A DNA stretch of 63,621 bases, the filler included, from Diploschistes diacapsis (lineage: Eukaryota), in NCBI GenBank assembly GCA_023645945.1. It is 24 parts of 24 records of this genome, joined end to end, with 100 filler letters (N's around TTAATTAATTAA, not from the genome) between each part and the next. Parts side by side here need not be neighbours in the genome. Positions count along the whole stretch, not along the records: positions 4,761 to 23,469 come from JALAIB010000401.1; 23 more parts are not named here. One strand, 5' to 3'. The translations under genes were made by a program, and so were the position numbers. Positions within the stretch are counted from its first letter, which is position 1; every line of letters starts with the position of its first letter. Below the pieces are notes generated by a model that worked only from the letters and a program-made list of their open reading frames with translations, did not search any database and had not been told where the DNA came from. Below are positions 1,091-41,429 of the stretch, piece by piece.

Positions 1091-1190
1091 NNNNNNNNNN
1101 NNNNNNNNNNNNNNNNNNNNNNNNNNNNNNNNNNTTAATTAATTAANNNNNNNNNNNNNNNNNNNNNNNNNNNNNNNNNNNNNNNNNNNN
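1091..1190. other. Artificial contig linker (N-run + TTAATTAATTAA + N-run), first of 23
   Basis: The same ~100-nt spacer with six-frame stops starts at about 1091, 2281, 3471, 4661, 23470, 24660, 25849, 27038, 28226, 29414, 30602, 31790, 32978, 34166, 35353, 54131, 55318, 56505, 57692, 58879, 60066, 61252 and 62437. Confidence 0.98.
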
Positions 1191-5615: not shown

Positions 5616-7246
5616 TCATTCTCGTTTGCTTTCGAAATAATCTCCTCGGGAGCTTCCTCTACGATTGTGATGCTTCAGCGGACTTCCTGGTCTCGATGTC
5701 GTGGTTGCCTCTTCCTTCAATGGCGTTAGAGGTAACTTCAGAGCAAAGGCACGGTCATCAAAAGGCTTTTCCGGGCGGCCATTGATAGGGCTAATGACGT
5801 TTATTGGGGGCGGTCGCGTGATGCGTGCCAGCGAGCCAGGCGCATCAGAGTTGACGTTGTAGAGGTAGGTTGCACAGAGCACTATTGCTGTACCGACAAG
5901 AAACTGTACAAGGACATGAGACATTAGCTTCCCTGATCTACGAACACAAGATAGCGAAGCTTCGTGCAAGCCTCTAGAGATGATTTAAAAGAAACGGCGG
6001 AAACAGAAAGAAAGGACCGTACATTGCGTGTGAGAGTGAAGTCAAAGAAGACCATGCTGAAGCACAGTGAAAGCAAGATGCTTATGCTGGTAGCGAAGCT
6101 TTTGGCGATGTTGTTGGTGTAATGGATGCAGAGAGCGACGATGACCCCGCCTAATGCTTGAAAAATGATGACGAGCCAAACAACGTAGTTGTAACCTACG
6201 AAGAAGCCGTTCTTGGAGATGTTCTCGCCGTCGACGAACATGACGCCTATGAAGAGCGAGGGAACGATCGAGTAGACAGATAGTTGGACATTGCGTATCC
6301 AGATGGAAACTTTACCTGTTGCTTCCTTCAGTATCTTCTCGAAGTAGACCGAACCGAGAGCAGACGCGGTGCTGGAGAGGATGGCTGCAGCAAAGCCAAG
6401 CGCTTCATTCCTATCCGGGTATTTTGCCAGATAATCTTCATCAATGCCCTCGTAAGTAGCCGAACGCTTATTGAGTCCTTCTGCGGCGCCGTATCCCCAA
6501 TTCTTCAGATCGCTGAACGATCTGGGGAAATATATTCGAGAATGGACGTCTTTGAGTGCTGTTGCAGCTGCGGGTTGCTGCGCAACGGGCATTTGAACAA
6601 GAGCCACACCAAACATCAGCAAAGCTAATGCAGCCCACTTCTGAGCTGTCAACGACCGCCGCAGGACCAGGATGCTGAATATTGCAGTGGGCAGGATCTT
6701 GAACTGGTAGGTAACTTGCAACGTGGCAGCATCGAGATTTGATATCGCAACATATTGAAGAGAGTGCTGCAGTGTATACAAAGCCGCAGGTATCGCAAGC
6801 TTCCACGAATCTCCCCCGAAAGTAGCCGCGGCAAGGGTCTGAAAAAGACTCGTCGCTGGTAATGAAGGCGCAACGTCCTGTGAGATCTCAAAGAGAGCGG
6901 CAGTAAAGCAGGCTGCGAATTTGACAACCTCGGTCAAGAAGACCGCTGTGGATGTGATATACCGCTGCCCACCAATCAAAGGCATTATCCTCGAATAGTA
7001 CATGATCTGTCTCTTGTGTAAGCCTAGTGTTTCCTAAGTAGCAAGGGCTATGAATGTTCGCAGAATCGAGGATGGGTTGAACGTACGAGAATAAGGATGG
7101 AATTCTGTACAACGAGCTGCATCGGGCGGTCAGCTAGGATCTGGACATATAGGTAGGCATCTCACGGAAACTAAGGAAATGTGCTTCATGGATACGCCTC
7201 GCCATGATGCGACAGGCTTATGCTGTAGACTCTCAATCACCGCCAT
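5616..7246 (-). CDS. Golgi UDP-galactose/nucleotide-sugar transporter (SLC35A/Gms1-like); exons 7246-7166, 7116-7087, 7006-6023, 5903-5616
   Basis: Spliced product MAVIESLQ...KHISLVS|LVVQNSILIL|IMYYSR. Motifs TSTAVFLTEVVK, KLAIPAALYTLQ, QVTYQFKILPTA, VYFEKILK, SIWIRNVQLS, NIAKSFATSISI. GT-AG introns keep frame. Confidence 0.92.
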
Positions 7247-7949
7247 CTTTCGGGAAACCTCCCACCTTGGAGGGAGAAACCCTACTCGGGTCGAAGGTGC
7301 TGGGCTGGCTCTGCTTGAGGAGTGGGCTATGGGGTACGTAACAAAGTTGTGGAAAGAATGAATAGGGTCAACCGTTTTCTCGAGCAGGTGGAGTGTTAAG
7401 CAGAGGTATGGTATAATAAGAGAATGATTAGAATAATAAAAGAAAAAAAGGAATCATCATTATCATCATCATCCTCATCATAATATTAGTTATCCCCCTA
7501 TATGCATAGGCTACGCTCGTGTGCTGCCAGGTACGGGCCAGTGGTAGGGCTGAGATCTTAGGTGTTGCAGCTGCGTGTTTCTTGGCTGGCTGGTTGCATT
7601 AGACCGCGCCACAGACGAGCCACAGCTGCATCATTGGAATAACTTTGTGATATAATGAGGTACGCTTGCTTCCACGTGGTGTCCAGCAATTCTGTACCTT
7701 GTCAACCAATCAAAGGACTAGGGCTTAAAACAAATGCGATTGAGTGATAGCAAAAGAACAAGCTTGTTTACTTTGTCGTGGAGGTATTAGATTACTAAAA
7801 AAGATCTTAATCGTGCCAGCTCACTGAATGCTGTACGATGTGAGTATCTTATCCTGACATGCATGAAAAGGGGGTATCGTAAGAGAAGAGGGACAAAAGC
7901 CAGTGCGCTGAACGAAGATCCTATAGCCGTACTCGAAAAGACTTCCAGC

Positions 7950-10133
7950 TCAATAGAGGTTCGAAAAGACAAACGTAGCAACGTCATCCTTGCTATTGGC
8001 ATCTAACCCGTCACCATAATCCTCAAGTCCGGTCACATAGATGGGGACATTGCTGATTGTCCGAGTCCTCTGGAGGGCTCGTCGGCTCGCACTACCGTCT
8101 GTCTCTCTCGCTTCGGAAGAGTCAAATCCATTCAAAGATGGATCGACTTCCGACCCCGGCAACTCCTGGGGCTGTAGAGGCAGCTGGTTCACGCTGCTCT
8201 CTGTTGATAATAAAGAGCTTTGAGGTTTAATTGAGCTCACCTGTGAGGCGATAGAACGTGTCAGCAGAACTGCGGCGTCGGCAGGAAACTCGGGTAAAGG
8301 TGGTCTTGATTCTCTCTTTTGCACGTCATCCATCAGCTGAATTTGGATCTTTGGTATGAGTGAGTTTGATCGGGACCTTGGCGGCACAGGAAAGCTAGAA
8401 ATATCGAGCTCTTCATCAACCATCTCATGGTCCTCAGCCTCGGCGTCCTCTAGATGATCGGTGCTGGGCACACGGAAATTTACGTGGTGCTCCGTCGTCT
8501 TGCTCAGCCCGTAAGCGCCGACTGTAGCTGACTTTTTTTGCGAGTTCAGGCCCATATCATGCTTCTCAGGCATTTTCGCAGTATCCCAAACTTTGGCTGT
8601 GAGAGGCTCCATGGGAGGAGTGTTCCGGCATTCGGCTGAGAGTTCATAGTGTGCAGCAGCCGAAACTCTGAGACCAAGGTCGGTCTGATTGTTGTGCTGC
8701 GATTTGACTGCGGAAAAGGCTTCAGGCCTACATCCGACACTAGAAGCAGCAATATTTGCAAGTGCACGTTTGGGCGGCAAACGATGTACTTCAACCGGCT
8801 TCGAAAATCTCGACGGAAAGCTGGTGGACTTCAAGGGGGTAACTGTGCTTGAGTCTAGCTGGATTATGCTGGAAGCTGTGGTGGCGCTGGACGCTTTCCG
8901 ACCTCTGCTATATATCGATGCACTTTCTGCAGTGTTTCCTGATCTAGTGGTGCTCTGTGAAAGACGTAAGGTAGCTCTAGAGCGTTCTTCGACATCGTCT
9001 TCTTCTTCTTCATCAGAAGATAAGGATAAGACGCTTTCAATCCGTAAATCACCTTTGAAAACTTTCCGAGACCTGACCTGGTTCCGTGAATTCCTCGCTT
9101 CAATATTCAGGCCGGCTACCGGCAATGGCCAGCGAGTTGTGTGAGGTCCGGGAGAATCTGGCATATTGCTCACTTCAGGTTGCGAGGTTAAAGTTCTGAT
9201 AGAGGTGCAGGAGCTTGTCGGCGAAAACGCATGCCGTCTAATGTTGTGGAACGCATCGTACGGTCGAGCGAGGGGGCGTTCACCCATTGAGGGACTGCGG
9301 TTGAGGTCTGCACTTTCCAACCACTCTCGGACATGCTTGCCGGTCCGTGGACCATTTTTCTTGTGTATCTGCTCTAAAGGTGCACGTCGGAAGAGATTTT
9401 CTTGCTCAGCTGAAGTGTAGCTCATGCGCCTGAGCCATCTCCCTTTCGATATCGAATCTGACCCGCCAGTAATAACAGATGCGGTCGACCTGTTCCTAGC
9501 CAAAGGAGACCGTAGTCCTGTTTTCGTGTCGGTGGAGGCAGGGGAAAGGGGAGGGAGATCGAGAGGAGGAAGGTCATAGCTCTTCTGGTGCCGAAACTCT
9601 CCAAAGTTTGCCGGACTCTCCGCGATCGTATGCATCTCACTTCCAGACGTCTTTCTTACGCGGAGAAAGCGAGTAACAATATCATCCGAAGTGCCCAATT
9701 CCTGAACATAACCTGGCTGATGTTTGAGACAAGGCGTAAGAGGACTGGAACACACTGAAGGTAATGTGGAAGTAGAGGCAGTAGGATCGAACGTTGGGCT
9801 CGGAGTCGAAGAAGCGCTGTCCAAGTCGTTCCCCGTACTCCCAAAAGCTGCAGTCCTTGCTGGCATCTGGGCCTTATTGTTCTGTCTGTGCGTTCCTGTC
9901 AATGCGCCGCGCAGGTCTGAGAATGGCCAATTAATTCTGCTGCCTTTTGTGCTCGGCTTTTTGGTCCCTCCCGTGAGATCGTTTTGCGCATGCCATCCAC
10001 TGCTGTCCGAGACACCAAGAATCTTTCTCGCCTTTGACCTACTCCGTTGCTCCATTCTAGCCAATAGCTCTTCCGTGGCGATCCACGGCATCTTCGCGGT
10101 CTCTTCAGATACTATAGGCGCGAGTCCCACCAT
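7950..10133 (-). CDS. Hypothetical 727-aa Ser/Pro-rich, probably disordered protein
   Basis: Uninterrupted 2184-nt ATG-initiated ORF in non-RIP sequence. No domain recognised; has an acidic SVLSLSSDEEEEDD patch. Confidence 0.75.
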   Translation of the reverse strand: MVGLAPIVSEETAKMPWIATEELLARMEQRSRSKARKILGVSDSSGWHAQNDLTGGTKKPSTKGSRINWPFSDLRGALTGTHRQNNKAQMPARTAAFGSTGNDLDSASSTPSPTFDPTASTSTLPSVCSSPLTPCLKHQPGYVQELGTSDDIVTRFLRVRKTSGSEMHTIAESPANFGEFRHQKSYDLPPLDLPPLSPASTDTKTGLRSPLARNRSTASVITGGSDSISKGRWLRRMSYTSAEQENLFRRAPLEQIHKKNGPRTGKHVREWLESADLNRSPSMGERPLARPYDAFHNIRRHAFSPTSSCTSIRTLTSQPEVSNMPDSPGPHTTRWPLPVAGLNIEARNSRNQVRSRKVFKGDLRIESVLSLSSDEEEEDDVEERSRATLRLSQSTTRSGNTAESASIYSRGRKASSATTASSIIQLDSSTVTPLKSTSFPSRFSKPVEVHRLPPKRALANIAASSVGCRPEAFSAVKSQHNNQTDLGLRVSAAAHYELSAECRNTPPMEPLTAKVWDTAKMPEKHDMGLNSQKKSATVGAYGLSKTTEHHVNFRVPSTDHLEDAEAEDHEMVDEELDISSFPVPPRSRSNSLIPKIQIQLMDDVQKRESRPPLPEFPADAAVLLTRSIASQVSSIKPQSSLLSTESSVNQLPLQPQELPGSEVDPSLNGFDSSEARETDGSASRRALQRTRTISNVPIYVTGLEDYGDGLDANSKDDVATFVFSNLY

Positions 10134-11412
10134 TGTAAGAATAATTAATATCAGTGGCTACCGCTGCGTATACTGTGTTGACGGAGCAGTTCCCAGTCTT
10201 TTAGACTGCTGAGATCCGGGGCCAACTGCTAGCTCCCTGCATTCCGATAGCTACCTTTCCACGACGACAAAGACCATCTGCAAAGCTAAAGTTGGACTGG
10301 TGAGGGAAGGATGAAAGAGAACGGAAGCAAGTGCGTCCAAAGCCGGAAGAAGACGAAGATATGAGGAAAAGTAGCCACTCAAAAAACAGAAAGAGCGAAA
10401 GCCGGTAGAGTTAATGTGATGGAGCTAGTTCAACGCCAAAGGCAAAATGGCGTCGATGTCCAGAATTTTGAGCCATGGGCCATGAGCACTTCGTAAGGAA
10501 GAAGGGGCCAGTATAATGAGGAGTGCCGCAAAGGGCAAAATCGTGGATGCAACCTTGCCTCAGGCTCTCAGCGGGTCGGGTCTCAGTGTCACGGTCCCTA
10601 CATACACGTCGCAGTAAAAGGTAGCGGTCTTTGCCCAAAAGCTTTTCGAAACGGTTGCATGGTCTTCAAGGTCAAGGTCAAGGTTAAGTTTTTCGTTTCT
10701 TTCCAACAGGGAGTGTTTACGTAACCGAGTCTAAACTGCAAGAGGGTTAGCCGAGGATCTACTTACTGCTAGCTTGTGATTGGGGGATTTTGTAACAGTA
10801 GTAACAGTAGGGATTCAAAGCAAAAATCTCCAAAAGAAAGTCCTGCTGGGCTGTGCAAGAAGTGGCTTGCCAAGCTAGTAGGAACAGTGAGCATTAATTG
10901 AGCTGATTATACAACTAAATATGCTCATGCGCCGTCGTATAAAGATGCACTGATTTCCGGTCAAAAGAAAGATGAACTTGGGGTTACTTCGAAAACCAAC
11001 TCCGCCTACTGATCGTCCTTCGACCTTCAGCCTACTGGTCACCTGAAAGTTGAATGGCGCGGAGTGGCAAGCATGTAACCTGCACAACCCGTTTTCCAAA
11101 ACCAGCTACTACTGGCCAGCCACTCACATTAATCTTGACTCCGCTGCTTAACGGTATCAGCTAGACGCTAAAACTTTTCACTTTTCCCCATTCCATCTGA
11201 AACGACCGACCAAGCTAGCCAGCATAAGCGGACCATTCCCACATGCGTGGTGCGGTTTGCAACTTGCAACAAAATGAGAAAAAGGACAAGACCGAAACTA
11301 GTACCTAGGTAGGTACACACACACGTGTACTTATGCAGGAACCCTTGACGCTTGACAGCAATTATACCACGGCCACCACCACATGGTCTTGCAAATATAT
11401 CGCATCAGGCGA

Positions 11413-14003
11413 TCAAAGCTTCTCGCTCACGTTGACGGGCGACTTCGCGTTACTGCTACAGAATCGCTTGCGCTTCCGTAGGCTCTCAGTGTCGCACCTC
11501 TTTATGCTCGGGGTTATAAACGGTGTCGAATCCTGATACCTTGCGGCAATGCGGTTGCTCCTTCTGCGCTGTGCTGGAAGGGTCTCTTTGTTTTCTTGTA
11601 GGGAAGCGCTCCTGTAGCGATCAGAACTTACAGCCACAAGCTCATCAGTTCCGTTCCCGACATCCGAGACGTCTGCCTTGCGTCTTTTTTTGACGGAGGA
11701 GTCTGACTCGACTCTTTCTACTGTCGAAGGGGTACTTGGTGATAGTCGCTTGTACTGAATCAATATTAGTCTTATTATCTCTTATTGACAACGGCTCAGA
11801 ATTGCTTACGCAATGCTGAAGAAAAGCCAAGGGATGGAGGAGGCCATAGCCTTCACAACTAGCAAGTGCTGCTTGGTTATTAAGTACTAGAAGCCCCTGC
11901 TTTTTGCGGTCGCTCTGTATTGCATTCACTATAAGGCCTTCTTTTTTGAGATTGTGCAACATGGGGCCAAGCTCGCTTGTGCTGTAACCTTTAGAAGTCA
12001 GTTGCTGAAACATATACGGTGGTAATAATCAACTACCTAGCTGCTTTAACAAGATCGACTCGGTCATGGGCACAGTCTGGTTGCGGATAAACCAGCAGAT
12101 ACGTCTCATGGCACTTATAGACCGCAGCTCTTGGAGGAGAGGCATTTCCTCGTCTTCGAGAAGACATGTATAGCACACATGGGTTGTCCCGAGGGTCGTG
12201 CCCTCTAGTGCGTAGCAATGGCGGTGTTGCCAGCTATCGCAGCAATCACATTGAACCTAGTAAATGCATAAGGGGCAAATAATCAAGACCGTTCGAGCAA
12301 TTACCATGTCGCCTTCTTTCTGTTGATACCCACACTCACACCGGCACCTCCACAGTTCTTCTGGTAATGATGCATTTTTTATATGTTTGTCCCGTTTCCC
12401 CCAGAGTTCATGGTCTTTACTGGGGACTAATACCCAACCGTCCGTGTCGTCCTGCACATTCATGTCGTTAACCATTGGTTGAGTTTGTGTTAGATCATTC
12501 GCTATAGATGGAGTTCGAATCTAAACATGGATCTGGTCAGCGATAAGACGAGGTTATCTCATGCACGGGAGCTTGCCATGTTTCTAAGTCGCTGCACAAC
12601 CTTGTTTTCTTTGACCAGCTCTGCGTCTGTGGCAGCCGTGACCATGGCATTTGCTGGCGTTGCATTTTGTGCACATGCCTCTTCTCTAGAGATCAGCAAG
12701 CTATGGGTCGAAGAAAGTCCACTTGTCGTCCTGACGCTATCTTCAACCACTTGTATGTCGAATGCCGTTTCCTTGGTGAGATACCCAGGTTCTTTTCGAT
12801 GCAGGAGTCTAGGGTAGCATAGATTCGTAGGGATAGTCAATTCTTCGGCGCTCGATTGCCCCCTTTGGAGAAAGGCTAGGTGATTTACGCCTAAGTGTAC
12901 GCTATCTCTGGTCAACAGCGTCGCCAGAACATAATTTGCGTTAATACTCATGGAAACCCAAATTCAAGTTGCCAATACCAGCCTTGCGCATTCTCCAACC
13001 TTTAGACTCAGCAACGCGTATATCCAAGTCGTAGTTAGGTTGGAAAGCAGGTGGACAATATCCAACTGGACAATCTTGCGTATAGAATAGATGGGTTGTA
13101 AGATATCGCCTCTCTTATATGAAGTTAGCCTTCTGATATTGACTCAAGACTAACAAGCTGCTTTCTTACCGGGTAAGTTTGGCAGTGTCTGACACAAAGA
13201 GACCAATTGCCTGACGACCGTGCAAAATTTCTCTTTCGCTGCTCCTGTTGTCATGGAAAACTTGGTGGAGGCTTCGACCTTCCCAGTTGCTGTCTGAGCT
13301 TGAAAAATTTCGGGGTCCTCATTATAGTTGAACTTGAAGCTATAAGACTCAATAACATTATTTGGTTGAGCTTTGTCTAGAATAATACTGATTTGAGCGC
13401 TTTGGAGATACCGCTTAGAGAGAGCGTCGAAGATTCCTTCCTGTATTACTTGGTAACTAGTTGGCTTTAGGATAGGCTGAGATACTAACCAGCCAGCAAT
13501 AGAGCTTCTCTGTTACACTGCAATTCTTTCGATCGAGGATCTTGAATAGCCGCTGCCTTTTGAGAGGGCCTGGGGGCGTAAAGGGACCGTGTCTGGCCCT
13601 GTCCCTGCATAGCAGACCATTGGTTTCCAGCTCATGGTTCAGCTGACGGAAATCTTTGCTAATGGATTCGAAGGCCCGGTCCTCAAAGCATTGATCTAGG
13701 AGAAGATTCCTACTGACCATAAGAATAGATATTAGGTATAGAGATCAGACAAGGAGCTTCCCTTAGGTAAGAGATAGAACTGAGCTGTTCCTTCATTAGC
13801 AATCTTATAGTAGGTACGTGTTCCTGTCAAGGGGGGCAAACCGAGACAAGGAGTAGAGCCTGAATGATCTCCAAGCTTTCAGCCGGCTTCAACCTATGAT
13901 CAACGAGCGGCACAACCTTTACGATATTGGCTCGAGTTGCAGGCTGCTGGTCCTTGACGACTCGTACTTTTGGGCCTTGAGAAAGGCGTGTAACAGTGAG
14001 CAT
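11413..14003 (-). CDS. HOP1: Meiotic chromosome-axis protein Hop1 (HORMA, PHD finger, probable winged helix, C-terminal tail), about 10 exons
   Basis: Manual splicing gives ...ESLEIIQALLLVS|LSSISYLR|NLLLDQCFEDR...W L|EGIFDALSKRYL...NNVIESYSFKFNY...LPNLP|ERRYLTTHLFYTQDCPVGYCPPAF (HORMA), then CECGYQQKEGDM|VQCDCCDSWQHRHCY...HVCYTCL (PHD). One intron needs a GG donor (see findings). Confidence 0.85.
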
Positions 14004-14944
14004 CCTAGTTATGCAGTTGGCTATACTACAAACAATGCACTTCACATTGGAAAAAGAAAAGCGTAACAAGAGCCGAGCCAAAAGAATGATAACACTCGGA
14101 AAAGACCAAGGATGAATCGAGCGTACCTAGGAACAGCCCTACAAATGCACGTGATGATGGCAGAGAGCAATATCTACTTGCCTAGAGCCCTACAGGCTTT
14201 ACTTGGGGGAGGCTTTCGAGGAGATGCCCTACCTGAATATTTGATGAAGATAATGCAAACGTTTTCATTTCCAGTTCCATAATCACCTGAATCTCAAGCT
14301 TTTGAGAGAGCACTGCTTGAAACGATTACCCAGAAGAGCACAAATACGAAAGCCCCTTTGCTGAAGATTATAGACAGCGATGATGATTATTTGTAATGGG
14401 GAAGTTTAAGCTGCAAGTAGACTAGAGCGGTTTAGCGAGTCTGTAATCACATTCGCCATCAGCCACACGATTTTAGATTGGGCATACACCCCGTTGGGCC
14501 CGTAGGACTACCGCATCTTCACCACCGTGGACGTTTGCCATCTTCCCGCCCCACCCCTCTTTGCCCTTGAAAAGTAGCGTTTTACGAGCAAAGTACAACT
14601 TTCAACCCTGATCAACGAACAGCAGTTGAGGTTGCACGTCTGGCTTTTCGAGAAAGGTTTAAGCGTCACCCTGTCTTCGGTTGGCACACTCTAAGGACAT
14701 TGCTGAATCTCAGGAGAAATCGAAGCCCGTATGCTGCCCACTCGAACCGACGGACCCTTCTACAACCCTTGAGCTGTACATGAGAGCCTACATCGAAGTC
14801 CATTGCTGCTGCTTAGTTCAGCTCTACTCAGCACTTATTAAAAATGCTTCTAGGCTTGGTGCAAATCTCTGGGTTTTGATGAAACGCGCTTCGACATCGT
14901 GTCAACCTCGTGTTCAACTTTGATTCGGGCCTCAACAACGCACT

Positions 14945-17900
14945 ATGGAAACTCCTGTGGATCTTTCTATAGCCCCTTTTACGGCTCGCTCTCCTTTTGC
15001 ATCGAAAATGGCAGCGGAATCTTTACCTTCAAATATTTCCGCCGATCCTTTTGGAGCAGTGGAGGGATTAGAGGTTGTGAAAAGCAGGTCTGAAAACACA
15101 CAACACTCGCAGGATATCATTCTTGGGCAAGTCTCGTATACTCCAGCGATTCAGACTACTGTTGTTACCACAACTACAACCACTACGACAAAGTTTCCGC
15201 CTCTGGTGATGAAAGCTCCCCAATACCTTAATGACCTCGACCCAAAGCTTTATCCTTTGGCGGGCACGCCCACACCTGCTTCTATACGCAACTTTCATTT
15301 TAATCTTGGTGATCGCTCGGCCTTTTTCCAGGAAGCTCAGGACACCGCCAAAACTCTAGAAGAGGTGAGTACGCAATGCGGCTGGGGGGTCCATGTCAAC
15401 GAAAAACACTAACCATTGGACTAGGTTCGGCAGCAACATAAGGCTTTGAAGGCTTCTAACGGTATGATTCGTTCCGTTAAAAAAACCGATCGTGCTCCCT
15501 ATACACCCCAAATACAAACACCGCAGAGTACACCGGGTCTTGAAGTTCATCGCATGATTCCCGGTGAATCCGATCTGTCTAAAAATGCTTTTCGTTCCGC
15601 TAGGGGTACCAAGACGCGGTCAGACGTCCGTACGTCGCAGAGCGGTGGACTTGGGGAGTTTCAGAAACAAGCAACACGGTCACAATCTAATAGGAATTCG
15701 AGGCTGCAGGCGCTGCAAACCTCAACTCCGATTACCCCTTCTTTGGACAGGGATAATTCTCACGATGGACATGCCAGAGTACAGAGACAGCCAGGGCAAT
15801 CTCACCCTAACCAGTACTCCGTGATTACCCCAGAAATGGAGACCACTGAATTCAACCATGTTCTAAGTCCCAAGCCTGAGAGAAGTTGTGTTCAAGGGAG
15901 TGCTTTCACAGAGGCGATCGTTGCCGATGCCTCCTCAGTCAAAAGCAGCGCAAGTCAAGCGGAAGACCAATTCTATCTGGGGCCCTCAATATCCCAACCC
16001 CGACCCTCGGTGCTTGACACTAGCACAGCTCAGGATGCAAGTCTACCTAGCCCAAGCCTGTCTCCTGTTACGGCAGCTGCGAATCTCCAGAATCGTCGAA
16101 GCTATTTTGATGAGGCTAATGTGCAGTCTCATCAGATGGCCCAAGGGAGCTTTGGTGAGCCTGGTATGACGAACCGTCTCATGAATGCCGGCAATCATGG
16201 CCCTCACCAAAACGAATCTTTTGCACTGTCCGGTGGCCCTCCATCATTAATGGACATCCCACTTTTGCTTGACTCTTTTGAGGCCATGCCAACAGAGATG
16301 AAGAGATACGTGATGTACCAATTGCTCCGACGCAGTCCGAAACAGGTGCTTCATTTCGTAGCCGAAAACGTCAACCCTGCCTTAAAGTGCGATTTCCTAA
16401 GCCTTTTGCCGCCGGAGTTGAGCCAGAATGTCATACGTCACTTGGATCTCAGGAGTCTTTGCCGCGCTTCTCAGGTCTCCAAGAAATGGCGCGAAGTTAT
16501 CGATACGGACGAAAAAATTTGGAAGGATCTGTTCGATGCTGAGGGCTTCGATCTTCCTGCTGCGGAATTACAGCGGGCAATCTCCGAAGGCTGGGGGTGG
16601 CAGCATGGTTCAGACCCTGAAGATTATGAGCGGGATGTCAGTTCCACGAGTATGCGGAGCAGCAGTACCGGCCTGTTACCTTCAGTTGCTGTGGGCATAG
16701 TTCGGAACTCTGTAACGCCAACAATAGATGCCAACACCCTTCCAGAACAGCAACGCCGACCAAAGAGGAAAGCGGCACAGCGAGGCCGTGTTTCCAGCCG
16801 AAAGCAACCTAAAAGGGATCAATTGTCTTTGAACGAGATTGCTGTTTTTGATACCGAGGCCTTCCAGCGACATCTTGAGGAAGCCGACGGCCCTTATGCA
16901 GCTGCTCAAGCTGCATTGCTCGCCGTTCCCAATCCCAAGGTGGGACTGCCAAGTCTCACCAATCTGCATCTTCACAAGTCCATCTACAGAAGGCATCACT
17001 TGATCAGTTCAAACTGGATGCAGGACGAGATTAAGCCTAGGCATCTAGCCTTCAAAGCCCACCAGCGTCACGTAGTGACCTGTCTTCAATTCGATGCCGA
17101 AAAGATTGTGACCGGCAGCGACGACACAAACATCAATGTATACGACACGCGCACCGGCGCTCTTCGTGCCAGGCTAGAAGGTCACGAGGGGGGCGTTTGG
17201 GCTCTCCAATATGAAGGGACAACTCTTGTATCTGGTTCAACGGACCGCTCGGTCAGAGTCTGGGATATTGACAAGGGTGTTTGCACACACGTTTTTCTCG
17301 GTCATACCTCTACTGTTAGATGCTTGATTATCTTGATGCCCACCGAAATCGGCAAAACGCCCAGTGGCAGATCTATCGTTATGCCAAAAGAGCCCATCAT
17401 CGTTACTGGTTCACGGGACTCTACCCTTCGTGTTTGGAAGCTTCCAAAGCCTAACGATACTCCATATACCCAAAGTACGCCGCCTCAAGAAGGTATCGAA
17501 AGTCAATACTTCATAAGGGCCCTCACAGGACATGGGCACTCTGTTAGGGCTATTGCAGCGCACGGTGATACGCTCATTAGCGGCAGCTACGACAACATGG
17601 TCAGGGTATGGAAGATCTCTACTGGAGAGACTATACATCGTTTGCAGGGACATACCTCGAAAGTCTACAGTGTCGTTCTTGACCACGAAAGGAACCGTTG
17701 CATCAGTGGCTCTATGGACAACTACGTAAAGATCTGGTCCCTAGAGACAGGAAGCTTGCTACACACTTTGGAGGGCCATACATCATTGGTCGGCCTGTTG
17801 GATCTGCAAAGAAACCGTTTGGTATCCGCAGCCGCCGACTCAACCCTGCGCATCTGGGACTCGGAATTAGGCCAGTGCAGAAATGTGCTGGGCGCTCACA

Positions 17901-18349
17901 CCGGAGCAATCACGTGCTTCCAGCACGACGGACGTAAAGTCATTTCAGGGGCAGATCGCAACCTTAAGATGTGGAACGTACAGACCGGCGAATTCATCCG
18001 TGATCTCCTTACTGACTTGACTGGAGTCTGGCAGGTAAGGTTTGATGAGAGAAGATGCGTTGCTGCGGTACAACGAGGAGGCCTTACCTACATTGAAGTA
18101 ACCATCCCACCCTGCGCACTGTATAAAACCTGCTAACCGCTTCAGGTTCTTGATTTTGGAGCATCCCGGGATGGCCTCCCTGCTTCTAAGCGCGGGAGGC
18201 GAACCGTTGTTGACATTCATGGCGCAGAAGTCATTGAACCTGGCGCGAATGCCAACGAAGCGGATGGAGTGTTTAGCAGCGACGACGATGGCGGCGACGA
18301 CGACGACGACGATGACGATGATGACGATGATGCTACGAGTGAATCTTAA
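14945..18349 (+). CDS. CDC4: F-box/WD40 SCF substrate receptor Cdc4; exons 14945-15364, 15425-18097, 18146-18349
   Basis: F-box DFLSLLPPELSQNVIRHLD...RASQVSKKW and WD40 repeats (VVTCLQFD, GHEGGVWAL, GHTSTVRCL). GT-AG introns with CTAAC branch sites. Last exon VLDFGASRDG...DDDD ends TAA at 18349. Confidence 0.95.
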
Positions 18350-18944
18350 GCATTCCAATTAAACGGGTAGCAGCATAATACTAATTTTGGAGTCCGTTAT
18401 CTTTTATTTCATGCTTGCATCGAAATACCCCTTTTGTTGTTGGAATTGGTCTTGGCGAAAAGTGTACATGCTTCTAAGATGGCCATTTTGCATGGGGAGC
18501 AGTTGCTGGAAAATAGAAGAAAATCGGCTCGGCATTTGCATGTTATTTATATAACCCTTATCGGCACCCCAGCAGCACAGCGCTAGAACAAGTTGAATAG
18601 AGCAGGACCTGCAGATGGCAAAGGCAAAAATAGACTACTAAGACGATGTACCTGATACAAGCATTGGAAATGATTGGATGTTGATTATCGGTGATCTATT
18701 TGATTCTATTAAAAAGAATTCTACACATTTGATTCCACATGCTCCGCCGGGATGTATGGACGTGGAGTACAAGAGCGATGAAGAAATGCACGTATCAAGC
18801 ATCACGGTGCTGGAAGGGTTCAGGAAACGCCATCAATATTCGGGCAGGCAATATCGAGTTGCTATTGATATCGCCTGTTAGGGCCCAATTCCTTGGAACG
18901 AATCTACTCTACAGCAAGGTCTAGACCACTTGGACAACCTTCCC

Positions 18945-20300
18945 CTATTCCGTATCCTCGTCGCTGTACACTGCCTTGGCAGCCTCTCCCGTTCCTCCTC
19001 CCTTCTTCTTCTTCGTCGCCTCTAGCTCATCCACCCTCGGCGCCAACCCACAGGCCTGTAAAACGGCCCACCTCAGGTTGTCCATACCCAAAGCGCCCAG
19101 CCTCGGCTCACCGAGATATTTGAACTTGCCCGACTCAGCGGCGCATGCAATTACCTGTCCAAACGTCTTCAGCACCCTCTCGCCACTGCTTCCCGTATCT
19201 GGCACGGCGCTCTGTGTTTCGTCCATTTCCCTCAGTTTCTGCTGTATTACCGCCATCCTCGGCGCGAGCTTTTCCGGGGTTATGGGAGGCCGAGTTTTGC
19301 CGGGGGTCTTGAATATCAATCTATCGATTTTCGAGAGCACCACTTGATGGGGGATGCGGCTTTCGCGCAGCATATCCAGGAGCCATATGTCCGTTTTTTT
19401 CAGCCAGTGTGTGCTGTCCACCAGAACGAAAACGCGCTTCAACTCTTTGCGTCCGCTCAGGTACTTTTGGATCTCGGTTCCCCATTCACTGTGGCTGCCT
19501 TTGCCGTAGCCTGGCATGTCGAGGACGTTGAGCAGGCCGCTCTTTCTCTTAGGAGTAGCGCCAATAGCGAAGGCGTTCATGGTCTTGGTGAAGCCAGGCT
19601 TGTGGGATGTGCGCACGGTGTCTGTGCGCATCAGGGCGTTGAGCAAGCTGGATTTGCCGACGTTGGAGCGTCCGAGAAAGGCGACTTCTGGAATTGAGGT
19701 GTAGGGCATATGCAGGAGGCGGGGGGTGGAAAAGAGAAGGGTTGGGCGTCGAGAGATGAAGAAGGTATTTGCATATTCGAGTTGTTTGGGAGATGGGGCG
19801 GGTGTATCGCGGAAGATGGCCAGGGCGGCGGAAGGAAGTGTGCGGACTTCTTCGATCTGAGCAACCCGAAGACTTTCGCGTCCAATATTTGGGAGATCTG
19901 AGGGGTTCTCCTCTAAGGACATAGGGTAAGAGGAAGGATCTCGATTGTCTTGGTCAGCCTCTGGCTGCTCTGCATGCTGCTCTGCATGCTGCTCTGCGGA
20001 GGCCCGGTGTGTTTTGACCATGGCAGGAGCGTTGCCGATGGGTGACTCAATCTGCACTCCAGGTTCGGGGGTAGCATTATTATACTTGGGCACTACTTTC
20101 GAACCTCGTGTTGATTGCCTTGGCCAGCTTTGAAGATGTCTGCGCTCATGTAAGGAAATACTATAAGCACAACTTTTTAGAGGCTGGAGTCTGGGGCTCG
20201 CACTTTGAAGCCCCAGCTTGATCTTCTTTCTGTCCCTCAGATTCTCTGTCTTCAGCCCCACTTTCGTTTGCTCGCCAAAAGCTCTGCGGCATGATGCCAT
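18945..20300 (-). CDS. EngB/YihA(YsxC)-family GTPase (GTPBP8/Mrx8-like, probably mitochondrial); start uncertain
   Basis: PEVAFLGRSNVGKSSLLNAL (G1), PGFTKTMN (G2), LDMPGYG (G3), LSKID (G4). First in-frame ATG is at 20300. Confidence 0.9.
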   Translation of the reverse strand: MASCRRAFGEQTKVGLKTENLRDRKKIKLGLQSASPRLQPLKSCAYSISLHERRHLQSWPRQSTRGSKVVPKYNNATPEPGVQIESPIGNAPAMVKTHRASAEQHAEQHAEQPEADQDNRDPSSYPMSLEENPSDLPNIGRESLRVAQIEEVRTLPSAALAIFRDTPAPSPKQLEYANTFFISRRPTLLFSTPRLLHMPYTSIPEVAFLGRSNVGKSSLLNALMRTDTVRTSHKPGFTKTMNAFAIGATPKRKSGLLNVLDMPGYGKGSHSEWGTEIQKYLSGRKELKRVFVLVDSTHWLKKTDIWLLDMLRESRIPHQVVLSKIDRLIFKTPGKTRPPITPEKLAPRMAVIQQKLREMDETQSAVPDTGSSGERVLKTFGQVIACAAESGKFKYLGEPRLGALGMDNLRWAVLQACGLAPRVDELEATKKKKGGGTGEAAKAVYSDEDTE

Positions 20301-20564
20301 GAAGAATGCGCCATACTGCTCTGAACGATGAAGATTTTGCCAGCGAAAACTATCCGTGAGCTGCGTGCGCAGCAATTCGAAAGGTGTAAAGCGCCATTGT
20401 GGCTTCGAACAGAGCATCAGCTGATTCACTCATGAACTCCCTGCTGATTATTGGATATATAGAAAGCGTTGTAGTAAAATTGCATTCATTGTTTATTGCG
20501 CATGTTCTCACACAAGTATATGCTCAGTTCCTTGATGCTGCTGTCATGGCAAAGCGGATTTAGC

Positions 20565-21680
20565 GGCTTGTCTTATTCTGCCTACTGTAAAATTGTGTAA
20601 CATATTTAGTGGCGCCCTAGTGATGCATTCTGCCTAGTTCGCTGTGGCTCTGCTAGGTACTTAGATTTCTATGTAATTTGTATACAAATGCATGTCACTT
20701 ATAGAAATATGCAAATATAAAATGCATAAAATTTAATTATTATAGCCATAGAGACTATATCGCAATAAAAAATAGATACTAAAGCACCAAAAGATGCTTA
20801 AAGTGCTTTAAAAGCAACTTAAAAGCGTGCTCTTAAACCTCCTATAGCTTCCTTTATGCCGTGCTCCTCCTCCGCCCATTATACTCCCCTTCGCCGCCCA
20901 TTATGCTTCTTTCCGCTTCTTCTCCATCTCCGCGTCCGATCGTAGTGGTAGGTGACCATGAAGCTTACCCGTAGCGCGTAAGAAGTTGCCCATGAAGGTA
21001 TATCGACACTGCGCGCAGTAGGTGTCGCATCGCCATCGCCGTTTCGTTAATGGCGGCAGCGATACCACGTAGTGCTTTTAGACGTCCGATTGGACGCTCA
21101 GAAGTTATCCACGTAAGATCAAAACGCGTCAAAATCCGCCACGGTCATCCGAAGGATGTCCGCGACGGCAAAGAGACGCGCCCTCCATGCCGGGAGGTCC
21201 GCAGGGAAGCTATAAAGCCTCCCCGCGGTAGGCAGCGGCGGCAAGGGTGTCTGAGCCCGCGCAGGCTCGGCGAGAGCGGCGAGGGCAGGCGAGGGGGCAA
21301 CACCACGACCCAGAGCGGCGGAGAGGGCGTCGTAGAGCATGAGGTCTTTAAGACCCAGCTCATCGTTGTCGGCGACCACATCGAACGTGGCCGCGGCGGC
21401 GTCAGGGAGGGCGGCAGGGAGGGCGGCAGGGCGCGCAGGGCGAGCAGGGCGAGCAGAAAACGACGCGTCCATCGCATCTAAAAAAAATTAGAAAGTTAAG
21501 ATCAAAAAACAAGAAAAAAAGCATGTAATCGATCGTTAAATAAACAAATGTGGCTGGAGAGAGCGCTAGTTCTATAGATACTTGTGGCTGCATACAAATT
21601 AGTATGACTGAGAAAGTATCTTGAGAACCATGGTACTTATCATGTAATTTATGTGTACAGTAGGCAGAATAAGACTTGCC
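20565..21680 (-). mobile_element. Complete 1116-bp TIR DNA transposon derivative (Mutator/Merlin-like ends) with a disrupted ORF
   Basis: TIRs GGCTTGTCTTATTCTGCCTACTGTA (20565-20589) and TACAGTAGGCAGAATAAGACTTGCC (21656-21680) match 23/25. Direct repeat GATTTAGC at 20557-20564 and 21681-21688. Internal minus ORF from 21472 has in-frame stops. Confidence 0.85.
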
Positions 21681-21820
21681 GATTTAGCGGGGTTTGCGGC
21701 TGCTTGAGCACAATTTTTTCCAAGCTTTCAAATTTATTCTACAATTTGCCTTAGCTCCCAAATTTTCTACCCTCAGCTGTTATAAGCTTGTCGAAACAAC
21801 ATGCACGCTGTCTGCTGACC

Positions 21821-22162
21821 ATGGCGACTGCCTCCCACAGTGCTGCCCGCGCTCGATCTCTATATCGCTCGATCCTTCGGGAACTACCAGCCCGTTCAGT
21901 CTCTAAGCCTTCGCCTCTCAAGCTTCGTCTCCGTACAACATTCTCCAACAATTCTTCGGAGGCGAAGCCCGTTCATCAATCCCTTGAGGAGGGAGAGCAG
22001 TACTTACAGTATGCTAAAGCTCAGAGAATGTATGCTACCCTTCTCGAGAGATACAATCCTGGCATGTCAATGGATGAAGAAGAGAGGGTTCGGATGACAA
22101 TGCGGAGGGTTGGAATGGATGCACCAACCAGTGGCTTCGAGTGGAAACCAAAGAAAGAATAA
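21821..22162 (+). CDS. FMC1: Mitochondrial ATP synthase assembly factor Fmc1 (LYR-like)
   Basis: MATASHSAARARSLYRSILRELP...QYLQYAKAQRMYATLLERYNPGMSMDEEERVRMTMRRVGMDAP matches the recalled Fmc1 pattern (LYR..LREL; Y..LLERYNPG..EERVRL.ARRVG). Confidence 0.88.
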   Translation: MATASHSAARARSLYRSILRELPARSVSKPSPLKLRLRTTFSNNSSEAKPVHQSLEEGEQYLQYAKAQRMYATLLERYNPGMSMDEEERVRMTMRRVGMDAPTSGFEWKPKKE

Positions 22163-22318
22163 GGTATTAGACTTCAAGTGATATCAAGTTGAGAAATGAG
22201 GTCTTGTCCAAGGCGTTATCTGGTCACGATACAGGAGCACATAGACTGCAAAGCTCAACATCCCCACCACGGCTCTCAGGAGTAAGTCGGATGCTCTTTT
22301 CCTTTCCCATCTTCCAAA

Positions 22319-22406
22319 CTTCATGATGATTCAATCACAATATTAAGACAAGCATATGTCCAAGCAAGCTCATGTCTTGCAACGACGAAACTATGTTGAC
22401 TGAACA
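22319..22406 (+). ncRNA. snR74: Box C/D snoRNA, snR74/U27 (SNORD27) type, guide for 18S Am28
   Basis: C box ATGATGA 22323-22329. Guide AGACAAGCATATG (22346-22358) is the exact complement of conserved 18S CAUAUGCUUGUCU. With D' CCAA at 22360-22363 the +5 rule lands on A28 (yeast numbering). D box CTGA 22400-22403. Lies in intron GTAAGT 22282...GCTAAT...TAG 22470. Confidence 0.9.
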
Positions 22407-22610
22407 CTTTATCCCATTTGGGAAGACGGCTGAACTTCTTAACTTTGCATACGCTAATAAGTCCTAATAGCTCGAGGCTCAACGGGTCACCGATCAAGGG
22501 ATTCCTCTTACGCTTCATCATTCCCTTCCCAGGTCCGTAGGAAGCAGCTGCAAGTCAGCTTGTCTGGAAAAGGTCAGTAGTCCCATTTCTTGCTCCCTAA
22601 GGAATATTAG

Positions 22611-22710
22611 CGTGCTTTGATGATTTATTTACACTTATCACGACGGTCTCCATAGCCACTCGTTGGTATTGATGAGACTGGCCCTTGACAAGGCCTTAAT
22701 CTGATGCACG
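22611..22710 (+). ncRNA. snR73: Box C/D snoRNA, snR73/U35 (SNORD35) type, guide for the 25S Cm2959-equivalent site
   Basis: Terminal stem CGTGC/GCACG. C box TGATGA 22618-22623. Guide TCACGACGGTCT (22638-22649) complements conserved LSU AGACCGUCGUGA. D' CATA 22651-22654, C' TGATGA 22670-22675, D CTGA 22701-22704. Lies in intron GTCAGT 22573...ACTAAT...CAG 22772 or 22777. Confidence 0.9.
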
Positions 22711-23569
22711 AGCCCTAGAACCTTGTACAAATCCAACTTTCGCTCGTCTCTGCAACTGTCTTACTAATCCAGATCAGCCATAGGTTTCGAGTCGTTATGC
22801 TGCCTGAAGAAAGCCGAGTTTACAGTTGAACAGGCGGAGCTCAAACACTTGTATTATTGTTCAGGCCATATGTGTTCAGCAACCTATGTTGTGCAATACC
22901 AACAGCTACTGGTGCAGATTCTTTTTCCGTTAGGAACACCACAAGTATCAATGTATTTTATACTCCTGGTAATACCGAACGAACAAGTCAATATAAATCA
23001 TGGTGCAGTTGCCACTATGAAGCTTTGAACTGACTGCCCCAATTGTCTTTCCTTCGTACTGCTCTTTTCGGATGGTGTCCTCAACTTGCGTCTGGAAATA
23101 CAACAACAACACTCCACTCCCCTGCCCGCAATCTCACGCGTCCCGTTACCGAAGCTATCCCACCCCAGTCCCTCATACACGCTGATTGGCGTGCTGTGAC
23201 TTATGCGGGACATGCAGCACCAAGCTCGTGAGCGGCCTTTTTCGTTGTCTCTTGCATGACGGGCCTCGACGAGGTTTCCTCGGCAGCCGAGTCTCCTTCT
23301 TGCGGCGGGATCAACGAACAGCCTTTCCCTCCTTTTAGCAACAAAGGCTGCTGCGGCGCCGAGACGGTGGGGAGGAGGAGAAAAAAAGGGGGACGATAAT
23401 CCCCTCGAGCGGGATAGCCGTGGGCGTAGTAGACGCGGTGGAGGGGTTGCGATATGGGCAGGGAAGGTCNNNNNNNNNNNNNNNNNNNNNNNNNNNNNNN
23501 NNNNNNNNNNNNNTTAATTAATTAANNNNNNNNNNNNNNNNNNNNNNNNNNNNNNNNNNNNNNNNNNNN

Positions 23570-35352: not shown

Positions 35353-35496
35353 NNNNNNNNNNNNNNNNNNNNNNNNNNNNNNNNNNNNNNNNNNNNTTAA
35401 TTAATTAANNNNNNNNNNNNNNNNNNNNNNNNNNNNNNNNNNNNNNNNNNNNGGAGGTAAAAGGGGGAGGTGGTTATGGGGGATATGATAGCATAC

Positions 35497-36593
35497 GGGA
35501 AACTGGCTGCGCAGGGTAAGGTCCTTCTGGCCGTGGCACTGGCGTGATCTTGATGCCGTGGTCGACGTTGTTGTTCGAACGACTATGCCCTCGTACGTGA
35601 CGTCGTCCACCGCGCCTGTGCCACCGACGGCACGCCCCGGCCAGACCCTGATGCGCGCGCCGTCCGAGGCGTTTGGCCATCGCACACGTTGCGCACGATG
35701 TCCGTCTCGCCGACGTACTGGCTCAGGCCGCGGACGCTGATACCGTGCGAGCCGTTGCAGTGCAGGTTTTGTGCTAGGAGGTCGGGCGGAGTTGGGCTTG
35801 AAGGAAGACGCAGTCGTCGCCGTTGTTGATGGTCGAGTTCTGGATCGTGATCGCGGGCGGCCCGGTAGGTGTCTCAGCCGTCCCGCGTTCTTGGCCGTGT
35901 TGTTGCTCTTGCTGAAGCCTGTGATGGAGATGTTGGAGATGGCGACGAAGTTATACCGGAATGGAGAGCGGACGAGGCTGAAGTCGCTTATGCTGCCGCC
36001 ATGCAGGCGTGCCGTGCCGAAGCGGACCGGCCGCAGGATCAGATCGTCCTGTGCATACAGGTCACACCAGACCCGCCCGTTCCCATCGAGCGTTCCGCCA
36101 CCGTGGATGTTCACGTCCCTCCCACCCAGCTGGAAGAATGTGGTGGCGTTCTGATACACCTGCTTGAAGGAGTTGGCTTGCCAGTAGGGCTGTGTCATTC
36201 GTGAACTGGATGTACCATGTGATGTCGAGATCGAGAAAGGTCAGGTTGAGAAGCAGTGCCGATCAGGCGAGTTGTGCCGCGAGGAAACACGACGTGACCG
36301 CCATTTTTACAGTCCTTCAGGCTTGCAGGATATATACTCGGATCCATCGGTGACCAGGTCGTCATAGCCTTGAACGTAGCAGACCCTCGCTCTGGAAGCG
36401 GAGTAGGGTGCAAAGCCGATGGGAAGAGGGCCGAAGGAAGGGCGTATTGAAGTGGCTCGTGGAGGCGCTGCTTTAGGGCCATGTGATGGGGAAGTTGCCG
36501 GAGATGGAGGACTCGGTAGGCTTCGTAGGTGGTCTTGGCGAAGGTGTTTAGATAGAAGAGGCCCACAAGGCCTGCGACGAGGATTGAGCGCAT
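35497..36593 (-). pseudogene. GH28 exo-polygalacturonase (PgaX/Pgx-like) pseudogene
   Basis: Signal-peptide-like MRSILVAGLVG. Motifs YWQANSF..YQNATTFFQLGG, GTLDGNG, DG*DTY (TGA at 35874-35876), [34 protein letters not shown] and CHGQKDLTL are spread across different frames. Confidence 0.88.
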
Positions 36594-39500
36594 TCTGGAG
36601 ACCTCCTCAACACCACTTGTCCCCAACATTTCAACAGTCGCGGGAGAAGGGGACTGGCCGCGGTGGAAGTATCCATGTTGACTCTAGCAAAGTTTCCACG
36701 AGATCTACCGGGGCTTTAAGATGGAGATGCCGTTGTATCTGATAGATCTGGAGAACGGCTTTTTGTGAGGGAAACAGTTCTACGAGCGCTAAGCCCAACT
36801 AGATTGTCGGATAACTCAAAATTGCTAAAAAGCATTCACTTGCCCTTAGTGCTTTATACAAAAGCTGTCAGGCTGGCGAGGTGTGAGAAAGTTAAAAAAG
36901 GTCTAGATTTTTTCTACATATTCTTAGACGCTAAAAAATGATCATTTGGGGCGCCGAGAGCTGGTCAAGTAAGCTCTGTCGGTTCTAGTTCAACTCGTTG
37001 CCAACTCTTTAGGATATATAATTAACAAGATGGGGATAGTTTAGCTGGAACATGATAAATACGGACATATTCCTTTGAACATTCAGATGGATACTCTCTT
37101 CATATCGGCCACCATTCTATGGACATCCTTCGTCTTCCTCTTCCTCTTCCATCATCACCCGATAGCCACCTCCTGAAACCCCTTTCGAGCGCTCAAAGAT
37201 GTTCTCCAACGTCCCCGCTTCCTCATGAAGAAGAATCTGGTATCCTCCCTTTGCCCCCTGTACTCTGCCGCGCGAGTCCTGCTCCTTGAAGCTCAATTTC
37301 AGGATCAATGAGTAGTATGTCCCTTTCGCCCTAAGCAGGTAATATGAGTTATACACCAGACCCCGAGCACCCTCTTTGCCGTCTGCTGCCGAGCTACAAG
37401 CAGCTCACCACTCTTAAGAAGGTCATTGCCTCTGAGAGAATTGATTGATGGCTTGCAGTTCGCGAGAAATTCATAAAGCATCGCAACGATGGAGATGTGT
37501 GGCAGGTGATTGTCCACGTTGATGGCAGGACAGGCTGGGTGAGATTCGCAGAAATCTTGGAGAGGTTTCGTCTTGGGGTTGAAAAACTAACGAAGCATTG
37601 CGTGGTATGTTTTCCGTGTTGCGGTTGTGTTCAATAAGAAGCTGGATTGCTATCGGCGCTGGTTCAGCAGTGAAGATAATCTTTCTTTTCCGGTACTCAC
37701 CTTGTCTGCTCTGTTCTGACGAGTGGGTGACGGGAGATAACGAAGGGCCCGAAGACTAAATAGTGATCCACGTGTTCGAGTTGGCTAAGGAAACGAACAA
37801 ATTGGAGCGAATTAGATTGTTCCCTTTCGACACTCGAACACGGGACTCCTTTTCGAGAAATCCATAACCAAACGTGAATGAGACCGCAATCACGGCCCAT
37901 ACCCCAAAACTTATGCTCATGACTCTTGTCATTCGCAAGAGTACCCCCGGCAGATTGCACCAGCTGGGATATATATGTTCGTTTCATCCACGGTTTCTCC
38001 TTTTCGCAATCATGCTGCGACTCTTCATCCATCATGTATTCACCATACATATTTGCTGTGTTCTGCCCTGACTTCTTTAACTGATGCATAGTGTACTTCA
38101 TCATGTGCCTTGGACTTGCGCTCGTCGGCAGCAAGAGTCCTTCACTCCACTAGTATTTTTGGAAGTTGAGTGTGTCTCTCCTGCTAAGCTGTATGTCTCA
38201 GCTAAGGTGTGTGACTCTTGCTGAGCTGTGTCTTCTGTGTTCTCGCATCAAATTGATTTCAGACTGAAAATAGCTGCCGTGGCTTCCCTTAGCTTGCTGT
38301 ATAGCTTCTAATATATAGTGAGCATGCAGCTCGCGTGGTGCGGCCGATCGCAGCGGACTCATATAGGAATACCTAATCTCAGTCATTCTGCGATACTTGG
38401 AGTATGTTCATTAATAAATGTCGGTATCTACCATTCCACTACTTTGGTGCCTTGAAGGGCTTGATTATCTTTCCTTACTCGGTTCCAGAAGGTCAAGCTG
38501 CCGCGTGCGTGATAGTGATCGGACGTCCAAACAACCATAGGGGGACCGTTATGGGTAAGAGCCTAGATGATGGGCTTGCTTCTGTGGTGCGTTCAGCTTC
38601 ATTTTCAATATTTGAGTGATCCTCTGCATCAGAAAACAATACTGCAAAAACGTCGGCTCTCTAGGAGTTCCGTAGGAATTCACTCTAATTTAGCTCCAAA
38701 AGAGATTGTTGAGTATCCGTTCAAGATGCCATTCTGATATGGTCAGCATAGTACTTCCTTCGGAGTCTGGTTCAGGTTCAGCGTACCCATACTCAACAAC
38801 CGCCCAGAACGCCGTCGCTATCCATATCTTTCCACTATATCAAAGTTCTCCACTTAAGTTCGCGTCTTCTCTGTGGTACAGGAAAATCTGTTCGCCGCTT
38901 GGGGAAGTGTCCGATATTCCACAGAGTAATATGGATGCAATGGCTTCAATCCAGGTTTATGGTTGAAGCAAAAGTTGTTGTTATTCTTTGGTAGTGTCTT
39001 ATGGACAACAATCTTCTCTTCAAATCGTCACGCTAGTTTTGGCAGAGCAGATGTACTGATACCGCCTTGAATGGGCAAGAACATAGTAATAAGAGGCAGA
39101 GCGAATGCTTGTAGGAAGTAATGAGAACCCAGACACTGAGCGGCAACATCAGCTGGCTAAATCAGGCTAGAGGTTAATCTGGAGGACATAAGAGACGCGA
39201 TCCTTTCTCGAGACTAAGCGGCTTCGACATCACAGCCTTCGATCAACATAGTATCTGCCGTGGTCACGGCTTGATCACAAGAAACCTCTACTTTAAAGAC
39301 GCTTTAATCACCGACGTGGCCTGTCTTGGGGAGGACTGATCACCGTCGTTGTTGATCAGCCACCCTAGGTATGTTGTGCAAATCTGCTCCGCTTTCCGCT
39401 TTGTCAATATTCCTCATCTGCTACCGGCCCAGACCATGCACGCTCAGGCATAGCCGCATAAGCTCATAGCTAGCGCCTGTAGAACTCGGTAAAGTCGCTA

Positions 39501-41301: not shown

Positions 41302-41429
41302 CCTGGGCTCTTCTCCGCTTTCCCTTCTTTCTCTTCTTCACCACAACACCAACGCAAAGCCCACATCCAAAGACCAATAACCACAACAAATTTCCCCTTT
41401 CACAAGCAGACCTCAACTACTATTTCGAA

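Follow-up and report, generated by a model that had tools for sequence, protein, structure and literature searches.

A putative two-member remnant of snoRNA cluster I directly downstream of FMC1 in Diploschistes diacapsis

In the stretch of Diploschistes diacapsis DNA analysed here (63,621 bases, from assembly GCA_023645945.1; hereafter the window), two small nucleolar RNAs (snoRNAs) of the box C/D class, one of the snR74 type and one of the snR73 type, lie in tandem predicted introns immediately downstream of an FMC1 gene, and this pair is, as read from its sequence, what is left of the Ascomycota cluster I host gene at its 3' end, beginning 119 nt past the stop codon of FMC1. Everything that precedes the pair in a complete host gene, namely the gene's own promoter, the snR78/72 hybrid, Afu_300 (snR77 type), Afu_513 (snR76 type) and snR75, appears to be missing from the contig, a single one of 18.7 kb (4761-23469) that carries the whole locus and ends ~690 nt past the second intron. 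The intronic placement of snR74 and snR73 is the published norm in filamentous ascomycetes and is not new; the truncation is the unusual part. Its value is that of an exception, as a cluster whose order and size comparative studies describe as invariant throughout Ascomycota is broken here and its surviving half directly adjoins a protein-coding gene.

The snoRNAs and the introns that carry them

The first of the two snoRNAs, of the snR74/U27 type, occupies 22318-22409 on the + strand, where a covariance model built from 59 distinct fungal sequences (the window excluded) and run on the whole window matches over its full length (1-88) with 64 bits (E 1.3e-10). Its box C, ATGATGA, lies at 22323-22329 and is followed by the guide (22347-22358), a degenerate D' box, CCAA (22360-22363), and box D, CTGA (22400-22403), and an external stem flanking the snoRNA (22307-22315 with 22421-22429) is present in both the minimum free energy and the centroid folds. 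The second, of the snR73/U35 type, lies at 22616-22706 (+) and is matched over the full model (1-103) by Rfam RF01207, whose gathering score of 37 is just reached, at 37.2 bits (E 0.019 over the whole window, 6.3e-4 over 2 kb); it carries box C TGATGA (22618-22623), the guide (22638-22649), D' CATA (22651-22654), C' (22670-22675), a hairpin at ~22680-22695, box D CTGA (22701-22704) and a terminal stem, CGTGC/GCACG (22611-22615 with 22706-22710). Both RNAs therefore have what box C/D RNAs have in general, a box C and a box D joined by a terminal or external stem. Their fold z-scores are not significant (-0.91 for snR74 and -0.81 for snR73), as is usual for box C/D RNAs, and were not used as evidence.

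Sequences for comparison were obtained from metagenome contigs, in which a search for a pattern combining box C, guide and C' of snR73 yielded at least 115 stretches, with full flanks for 80 loci. The RF01207 match is the sole gathering-level Rfam match in the window and its margin is small, yet the threshold is reached by just 3 of 18 undoubted comparator loci. The initial annotation, which proposed an snR74-type followed by an snR73-type snoRNA, had pointed to Rfam as the arbiter, and the outcome there is divided: snR73 attains its gathering score, whereas the U27/snR74 family SNORD27 (RF00086) gives 21.5 bits on 22318-22392 against a threshold of 52, and the snR74 orthologue of locus L053 likewise falls below that threshold (32.7 bits). 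With 64 bits from the fungal model and a failing SNORD27 score, fungal snR74 orthology is therefore supported and formal Rfam membership is not.

The boxes, guides and internal hairpins of the two RNAs align with those of unique metagenome-locus sequences (62 for snR74 and 102 for snR73), in which the D' boxes have the same form as in the window, C[CGT][AG]A after the snR74 guide and CATA after the snR73 guide, a degenerate D' being the norm among fungal and Pezizomycotina sequences. When positions 21500-23469 were compared with all loci by blastn, the only matches were 22323-22392, 22614-22708 and, in locus L052, the FMC1 coding sequence (CDS), a pattern that reads as the signature of conserved snoRNAs within unconserved host exons. 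The guides are the same as those of Neurospora crassa CD21 and CD31 and as the Rfam consensus, and the predicted complementarity to ribosomal RNA (rRNA) rests on that identity; as tabulated in PMC2780460, CD21 (snR74/U27, 18S-Am28) and CD31 (snR73/U35, 26S-Cm2917) are intronic and form 13/0 guide duplexes at D'. By these likenesses the two RNAs are orthologous to snR74 (CD21, U27) and snR73 (CD31, U35), methylation guides that are conserved in fungi. The former would direct 2'-O-methylation of an A close to the 18S rRNA 5' end, and the latter methylation of the C in AGAC of large-subunit rRNA.

The gene that precedes them is an intronless open reading frame (ORF) of 113 aa at 21821-22162 (+), with a TAA stop at 22160-22162, which contains Pfam domain PF13233 (Complex1_LYR_2, E 4.5e-20) and has 908 of 913 candidate homologues matching at E <= 0.001, several of which JGI or UniRef label as 'ATP synthase assembly factor FMC1, mitochondrial'. 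Its best named relatives come from lichen-forming fungi, for example Thelotrema lepadinum with 79% identity. The ORF is accordingly read as an FMC1-type LYR protein, as had been proposed, with a function taken from the homologues' names. An extension of the protein into the downstream exons was considered and rejected: the C-termini of 17 aligned FMC1 homologues are co-linear, and the longer homologues (141-177 aa) differ only by unconserved N-terminal ORF-calling extensions, and therefore the CDS ends at 22162. Upstream of the gene there are a single CGATGAGC at 21358-21365 (-) and a single AAATTTT at 21760 (+), which we take to be similar to PAC and RRPE, words found in the promoters of yeast ribosome-biogenesis genes, and which could easily occur by chance.

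The stop codon is followed by a spacer of 119 nt (22163-22281, +), which would be either the FMC1 3' untranslated region (UTR), doubling as exon 1 of the host, or the stretch in which a separate host has its first exon, and which is conserved in none of the 115 comparator loci by blastn. Then come a predicted intron of 189 nt (22282-22470, +; GTAAGT, branch site GCTAAT, 3' TAG), an unconserved internal exon of 102 nt (22471-22572, +), and a second predicted intron of 200 or 205 nt (22573-22772 or 22573-22777, +; GTCAGT, branch site TACTAAT, 3' CAG). A putative last exon extends from 22778 to 23030 (+), its 3' end being placed by TGTA ... AATATAAAT elements near 22960-23005 that we presume to be poly(A) signals. 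These positions, the gap of ~120 nt and the allotment of one snoRNA to each intron, attested by splice signals and box positions, all agree with the initial annotation. The exons downstream of FMC1 have no blastn or tblastn match among the 115 comparator loci and, when spliced, hold no ORFs other than short ones, of 51 and 52 aa, that are not conserved, so that the arrangement, on splice signals read from sequence, is that of cluster I, with one snoRNA per spliceosomal intron between unconserved non-coding exons. The spacing is also similar to that of the homologous intron in locus L052, with 41 nt from 5' splice site to box C in the window versus 36 nt and ~50 nt from box D to branch site versus 47 nt; the L052 counterpart of exon 2 is 76 nt long.

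Extent of cluster I in the window and in comparator loci

The cluster I passage of PMC5824354 gives an order and a length (~1.5 kb) that are 'highly conserved throughout all Ascomycota' and reports no conserved flanking proteins, and the portions of PMC3596301 and PMC2780460 devoted to Euascomycetes place all members (snR78-77-76-75-74-73-72) in the introns of a non-coding, UHG-like host. The comparator loci conform to this description. The exact 12-nt snR74 guide is found on the same strand in 71 of the 108 listed loci having at least 300 nt of upstream sequence, 128-484 nt upstream (median 224) as against 271 nt in the window; some of the loci that lack it are evidently matches by chance or from outside the fungi. 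In 18 long loci scanned with Rfam, snR75 was recognised in all 18, as was Afu_300 or snR77, and Afu_513 or snR76 in 17; in every case they lie upstream of snR74-snR73 and keep the same order. With nhmmer profiles built for snR75, Afu_513 and Afu_300 from the Rfam matches of those 18 loci, snR75 was found upstream in 43 of the 43 listed loci in which the snR74 guide is present and the upstream sequence runs to 800 nt or more (42 distinct sequences). Afu_300, Afu_513 and snR75 occur together in 31 of the 37 listed loci where it runs to 1700 nt or more, and snR75 is kept in the other six as well (L001, L020, L043, L051, L063 and L072).

In the 63.6-kb window, none of snR75, Afu_513 and Afu_300 is found at E <= 10 by either Rfam or nhmmer, and the FMC1 CDS sits where snR75 would be expected. 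Instead of a run of snR77-snR76-snR75-snR74-snR73 within ~1.5 kb, only snR74 and snR73 are present, so that the proposal of a two-member piece of the snR78-72 cluster, with no other member nearby, holds up in the comparison with loci that carry snR75 upstream.

Compared with the cluster I of other Pezizomycotina, such as the UHG-like gene of N. crassa, the window agrees in both snoRNAs and in their order, one per GT-AG intron, with short unconserved exons and the same spacing of snoRNA to splice sites. It differs in retaining only the last two of six members (snR78/72-snR77-snR76-snR75-snR74-snR73), in having upstream neither a non-coding first exon of its own nor a separate promoter region, and in the conserved protein ORF that ends 119 nt before its first intron. 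Two other systems differ in other ways: the yeast SNR78-SNR72 cluster is one polycistronic transcript matured by endonucleolytic processing, and the animal U27 and U35 RNAs reside in different host genes. Orthologous guides in the same 5'-3' order are present in that S. cerevisiae cluster, which unlike the window has seven members and is intron-less after de-intronization (PMC3596301, in its yeast portion), and animal U27 (SNORD27) and U35 (SNORD35) share guide elements and targets with the window and are likewise intron-encoded (table of PMC2780460; Rfam alignments).

A search by tblastn and with an FMC1 hidden Markov model, among loci of which 32 of those listed with the snR74 guide have at least 3 kb of upstream and 26 at least 3 kb of downstream sequence, found FMC1 at 2 of the 115 listed loci, L052 and L053, in each within ~2.5 kb of a full cluster. 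In L052, FMC1 (377-706, +; closest to Dothideomycetes proteins) precedes the first host 5' splice site of a complete, same-strand cluster by 948 nt (region 377-3115), and in L053 the cluster comes first, followed by a GTPase gene on the opposite strand and, beyond that gene, by FMC1. In a third locus, L015, the cluster is followed by the same MMR_HSR1 GTPase gene on the opposite strand, and in the window this GTPase gene is found too, at 18948-20429 (-), upstream of FMC1. FMC1, the GTPase gene and cluster I can thus be recognised as neighbours, in varied local arrangements, in several distant Pezizomycotina, and from this microsynteny it follows that the adjacency is probably old and an assembly chimera unlikely. 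The layout of the window would be explained most simply as a deletion from an L052-like state. The four members snR75-78 may have moved elsewhere in the genome, or the matching rRNA methylations may have been lost in this lineage.

The first cluster member of L052, at 1697-1780, has a box C GTGATGA, a guide region with AACTAGAGTC and a box D CTGA. No Rfam family recognises it at E <= 1; presumably it corresponds to the snR78/72 hybrid of which the cluster I part of PMC3596301 gives an account.

Transcription of the introns

The sequence modestly favours co-transcription of both introns with FMC1, as the initial annotation proposed, a leaning that derives from the 119-nt spacer, the absence of the 5' half of the cluster and the absence of an E-box. 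RNA polymerase II starting at the FMC1 promoter would read through both introns, the FMC1 pre-mRNA or a read-through isoform would be the snoRNA precursor, and each snoRNA would be freed from its own intron by splicing, debranching and exonucleolytic trimming. The spliced FMC1 mRNA would then bear exon junctions 119 and 221 nt past its stop codon. More tentative is a fuller scenario, plausible though we hold it with some reserve, in which the deletion took the cluster I promoter and the first four snoRNA introns and left snR74 and snR73 on the FMC1 promoter, so that FMC1 pre-mRNA is their sole precursor and FMC1 mRNA is a constitutive target of nonsense-mediated decay (NMD) dependent on the exon junction complex (EJC).

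The E-box in question, CACGTG, is a candidate conserved promoter element of the cluster I host. In a k-mer search of host promoters, an unmasked pass recovered just the body of the first snoRNA, and CACGTG emerged after masking: it occurs in 17 of 29 distinct canonical cluster I host promoters versus 1 of 27 control stretches, mostly as TCACGTGA, and stands upstream of the first snoRNA's box C by 173-241 nt, or in one case by 405 nt. The loci bearing it upstream of the first cluster snoRNA (L019, L040, L077, L044, L073, L060, L018, L024, L057, L064, L066, L046, L004, L065, L080, L079 and L051) are not independent of one another. We take the element to be of the Cbf1 type. Other enriched 8-mers came from few related loci and were set aside, a partial match to one, TAATGGCGG, at 21048 in the window being regarded as chance. 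In the window the E-box is absent from 20400-22300.

The chief alternative, less probable and rather doubtful in our judgement yet deserving of serious attention, is an independent, short, non-coding UHG-like host that starts in the late FMC1 CDS or within the spacer, such that the snoRNAs merely adjoin FMC1 and the FMC1 mRNA ends separately, either overlapping the host or polyadenylated before 22282. Such a host would resemble known ones in that the exons past FMC1 hold nothing but those short unconserved ORFs. Against it, 119 nt is scant for an FMC1 3'UTR, a poly(A) site, a promoter and a first exon together, and neither a TATA box nor CACGTG is found in 21821-22281. Nor does any of 27 comparator hosts begin this near a recognisable upstream gene: 0 of 27 have a recognisable protein ORF whose end is 300 nt or less from their first 5' splice site, and although the nearest upstream same-strand ORF of at least 80 aa is within 300 nt in 3 of 27, these ORFs are chance-like, have no Pfam match and in one case are broken in a near-identical locus, the distance from host to upstream ORF being in any case a crude measure.

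Several points weigh against transcription from FMC1, the first two of which speak directly for an independent host. In the parts of PMC3596301 and PMC2780460 that treat cluster I hosts in fungi, all of those published are non-coding. In L052, where a TATA box lies at 1429, 225 nt before the first 5' splice site of the host, FMC1 and the cluster are probably separate units, and therefore two such neighbours need not be transcribed together. Strong transcription is what a snoRNA host normally requires, whereas an FMC1 mRNA with junctions in its 3'UTR might be unstable. FMC1 is near the cluster in only 2 of the 115 listed loci. CACGTG is likewise missing from 12 of the 29 canonical promoters, making its absence from the window weak evidence. 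The comparison itself also has its limits, as the comparator loci are phylogenetically non-independent, several being near-identical, and the snR74 12-mer and snR73 11-mer were selection patterns, which renders the invariance of the guides circular and leaves the flanking features free of this circularity. Finally, a second, full cluster may exist elsewhere in the genome. That last point belongs to a further reading, in which the pair is a partial, possibly decaying or unexpressed duplicate of a complete cluster, or the junction with FMC1 an assembly chimera; the assembly is highly fragmented, but this is improbable, given that both snoRNAs keep all boxes, guides and stems and give full-length scores, that both introns keep consensus 5' splice sites, branch sites and 3' splice sites, and that a random chimera would not reproduce the association of FMC1 and the GTPase neighbour with cluster I seen in the independent loci L052, L053 and L015.

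If FMC1 is indeed the host, the locus would be a case of natural promoter capture, in which a protein-coding host has replaced a non-coding snoRNA host, and two cytosolic rRNA methylation guides would be tied to the transcription of a mitochondrial ATP synthase assembly factor. It would also provide a fungal protein-coding mRNA with snoRNA introns in its 3'UTR, with a bearing on the balance between NMD and snoRNA production. The sensitivity of the FMC1 mRNA to NMD would follow from its layout: spliced 3'UTR introns reportedly trigger EJC-dependent NMD in Neurospora, as found by Zhang and Sachs in 2015, and with FMC1 as host the junctions would lie more than 50 nt past the stop codon, the decay-triggering feature that such mRNAs share with snoRNA hosts that are NMD substrates. 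To our knowledge, the known fungal examples of NMD through 3'UTR introns are not snoRNA hosts. Human snoRNA host transcripts, for their part, are frequent NMD substrates (PMC4233243, in the portion on host transcripts).

Contig setting and neighbouring genes

The window is a pseudo-molecule in which many contigs are joined by linkers of 44 N, TTAATTAATTAA and 44 N, with 44 N-runs across 1091-62536 (for example 23470-23569), and features are not to be read across these joins. It comprises two contigs of ~18.7 kb (4761-23469, which holds the snoRNA locus, and 35453-54130) and many of ~1.09 kb. A weak box C/D-like match at 44771-44827 was dropped, as it reads like coding sequence. Between the GTPase gene and FMC1 there is a GC-rich ORF of 117 aa at 21119-21472 (-), which is without a Pfam match and without a match in the 115 comparator loci. 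On the other side of the GTPase gene, and convergent with it, a gene at 15425-18136 (+) encodes a 903-aa protein with an F-box and WD40 repeats, in an architecture like that of Cdc4/Fbw7.

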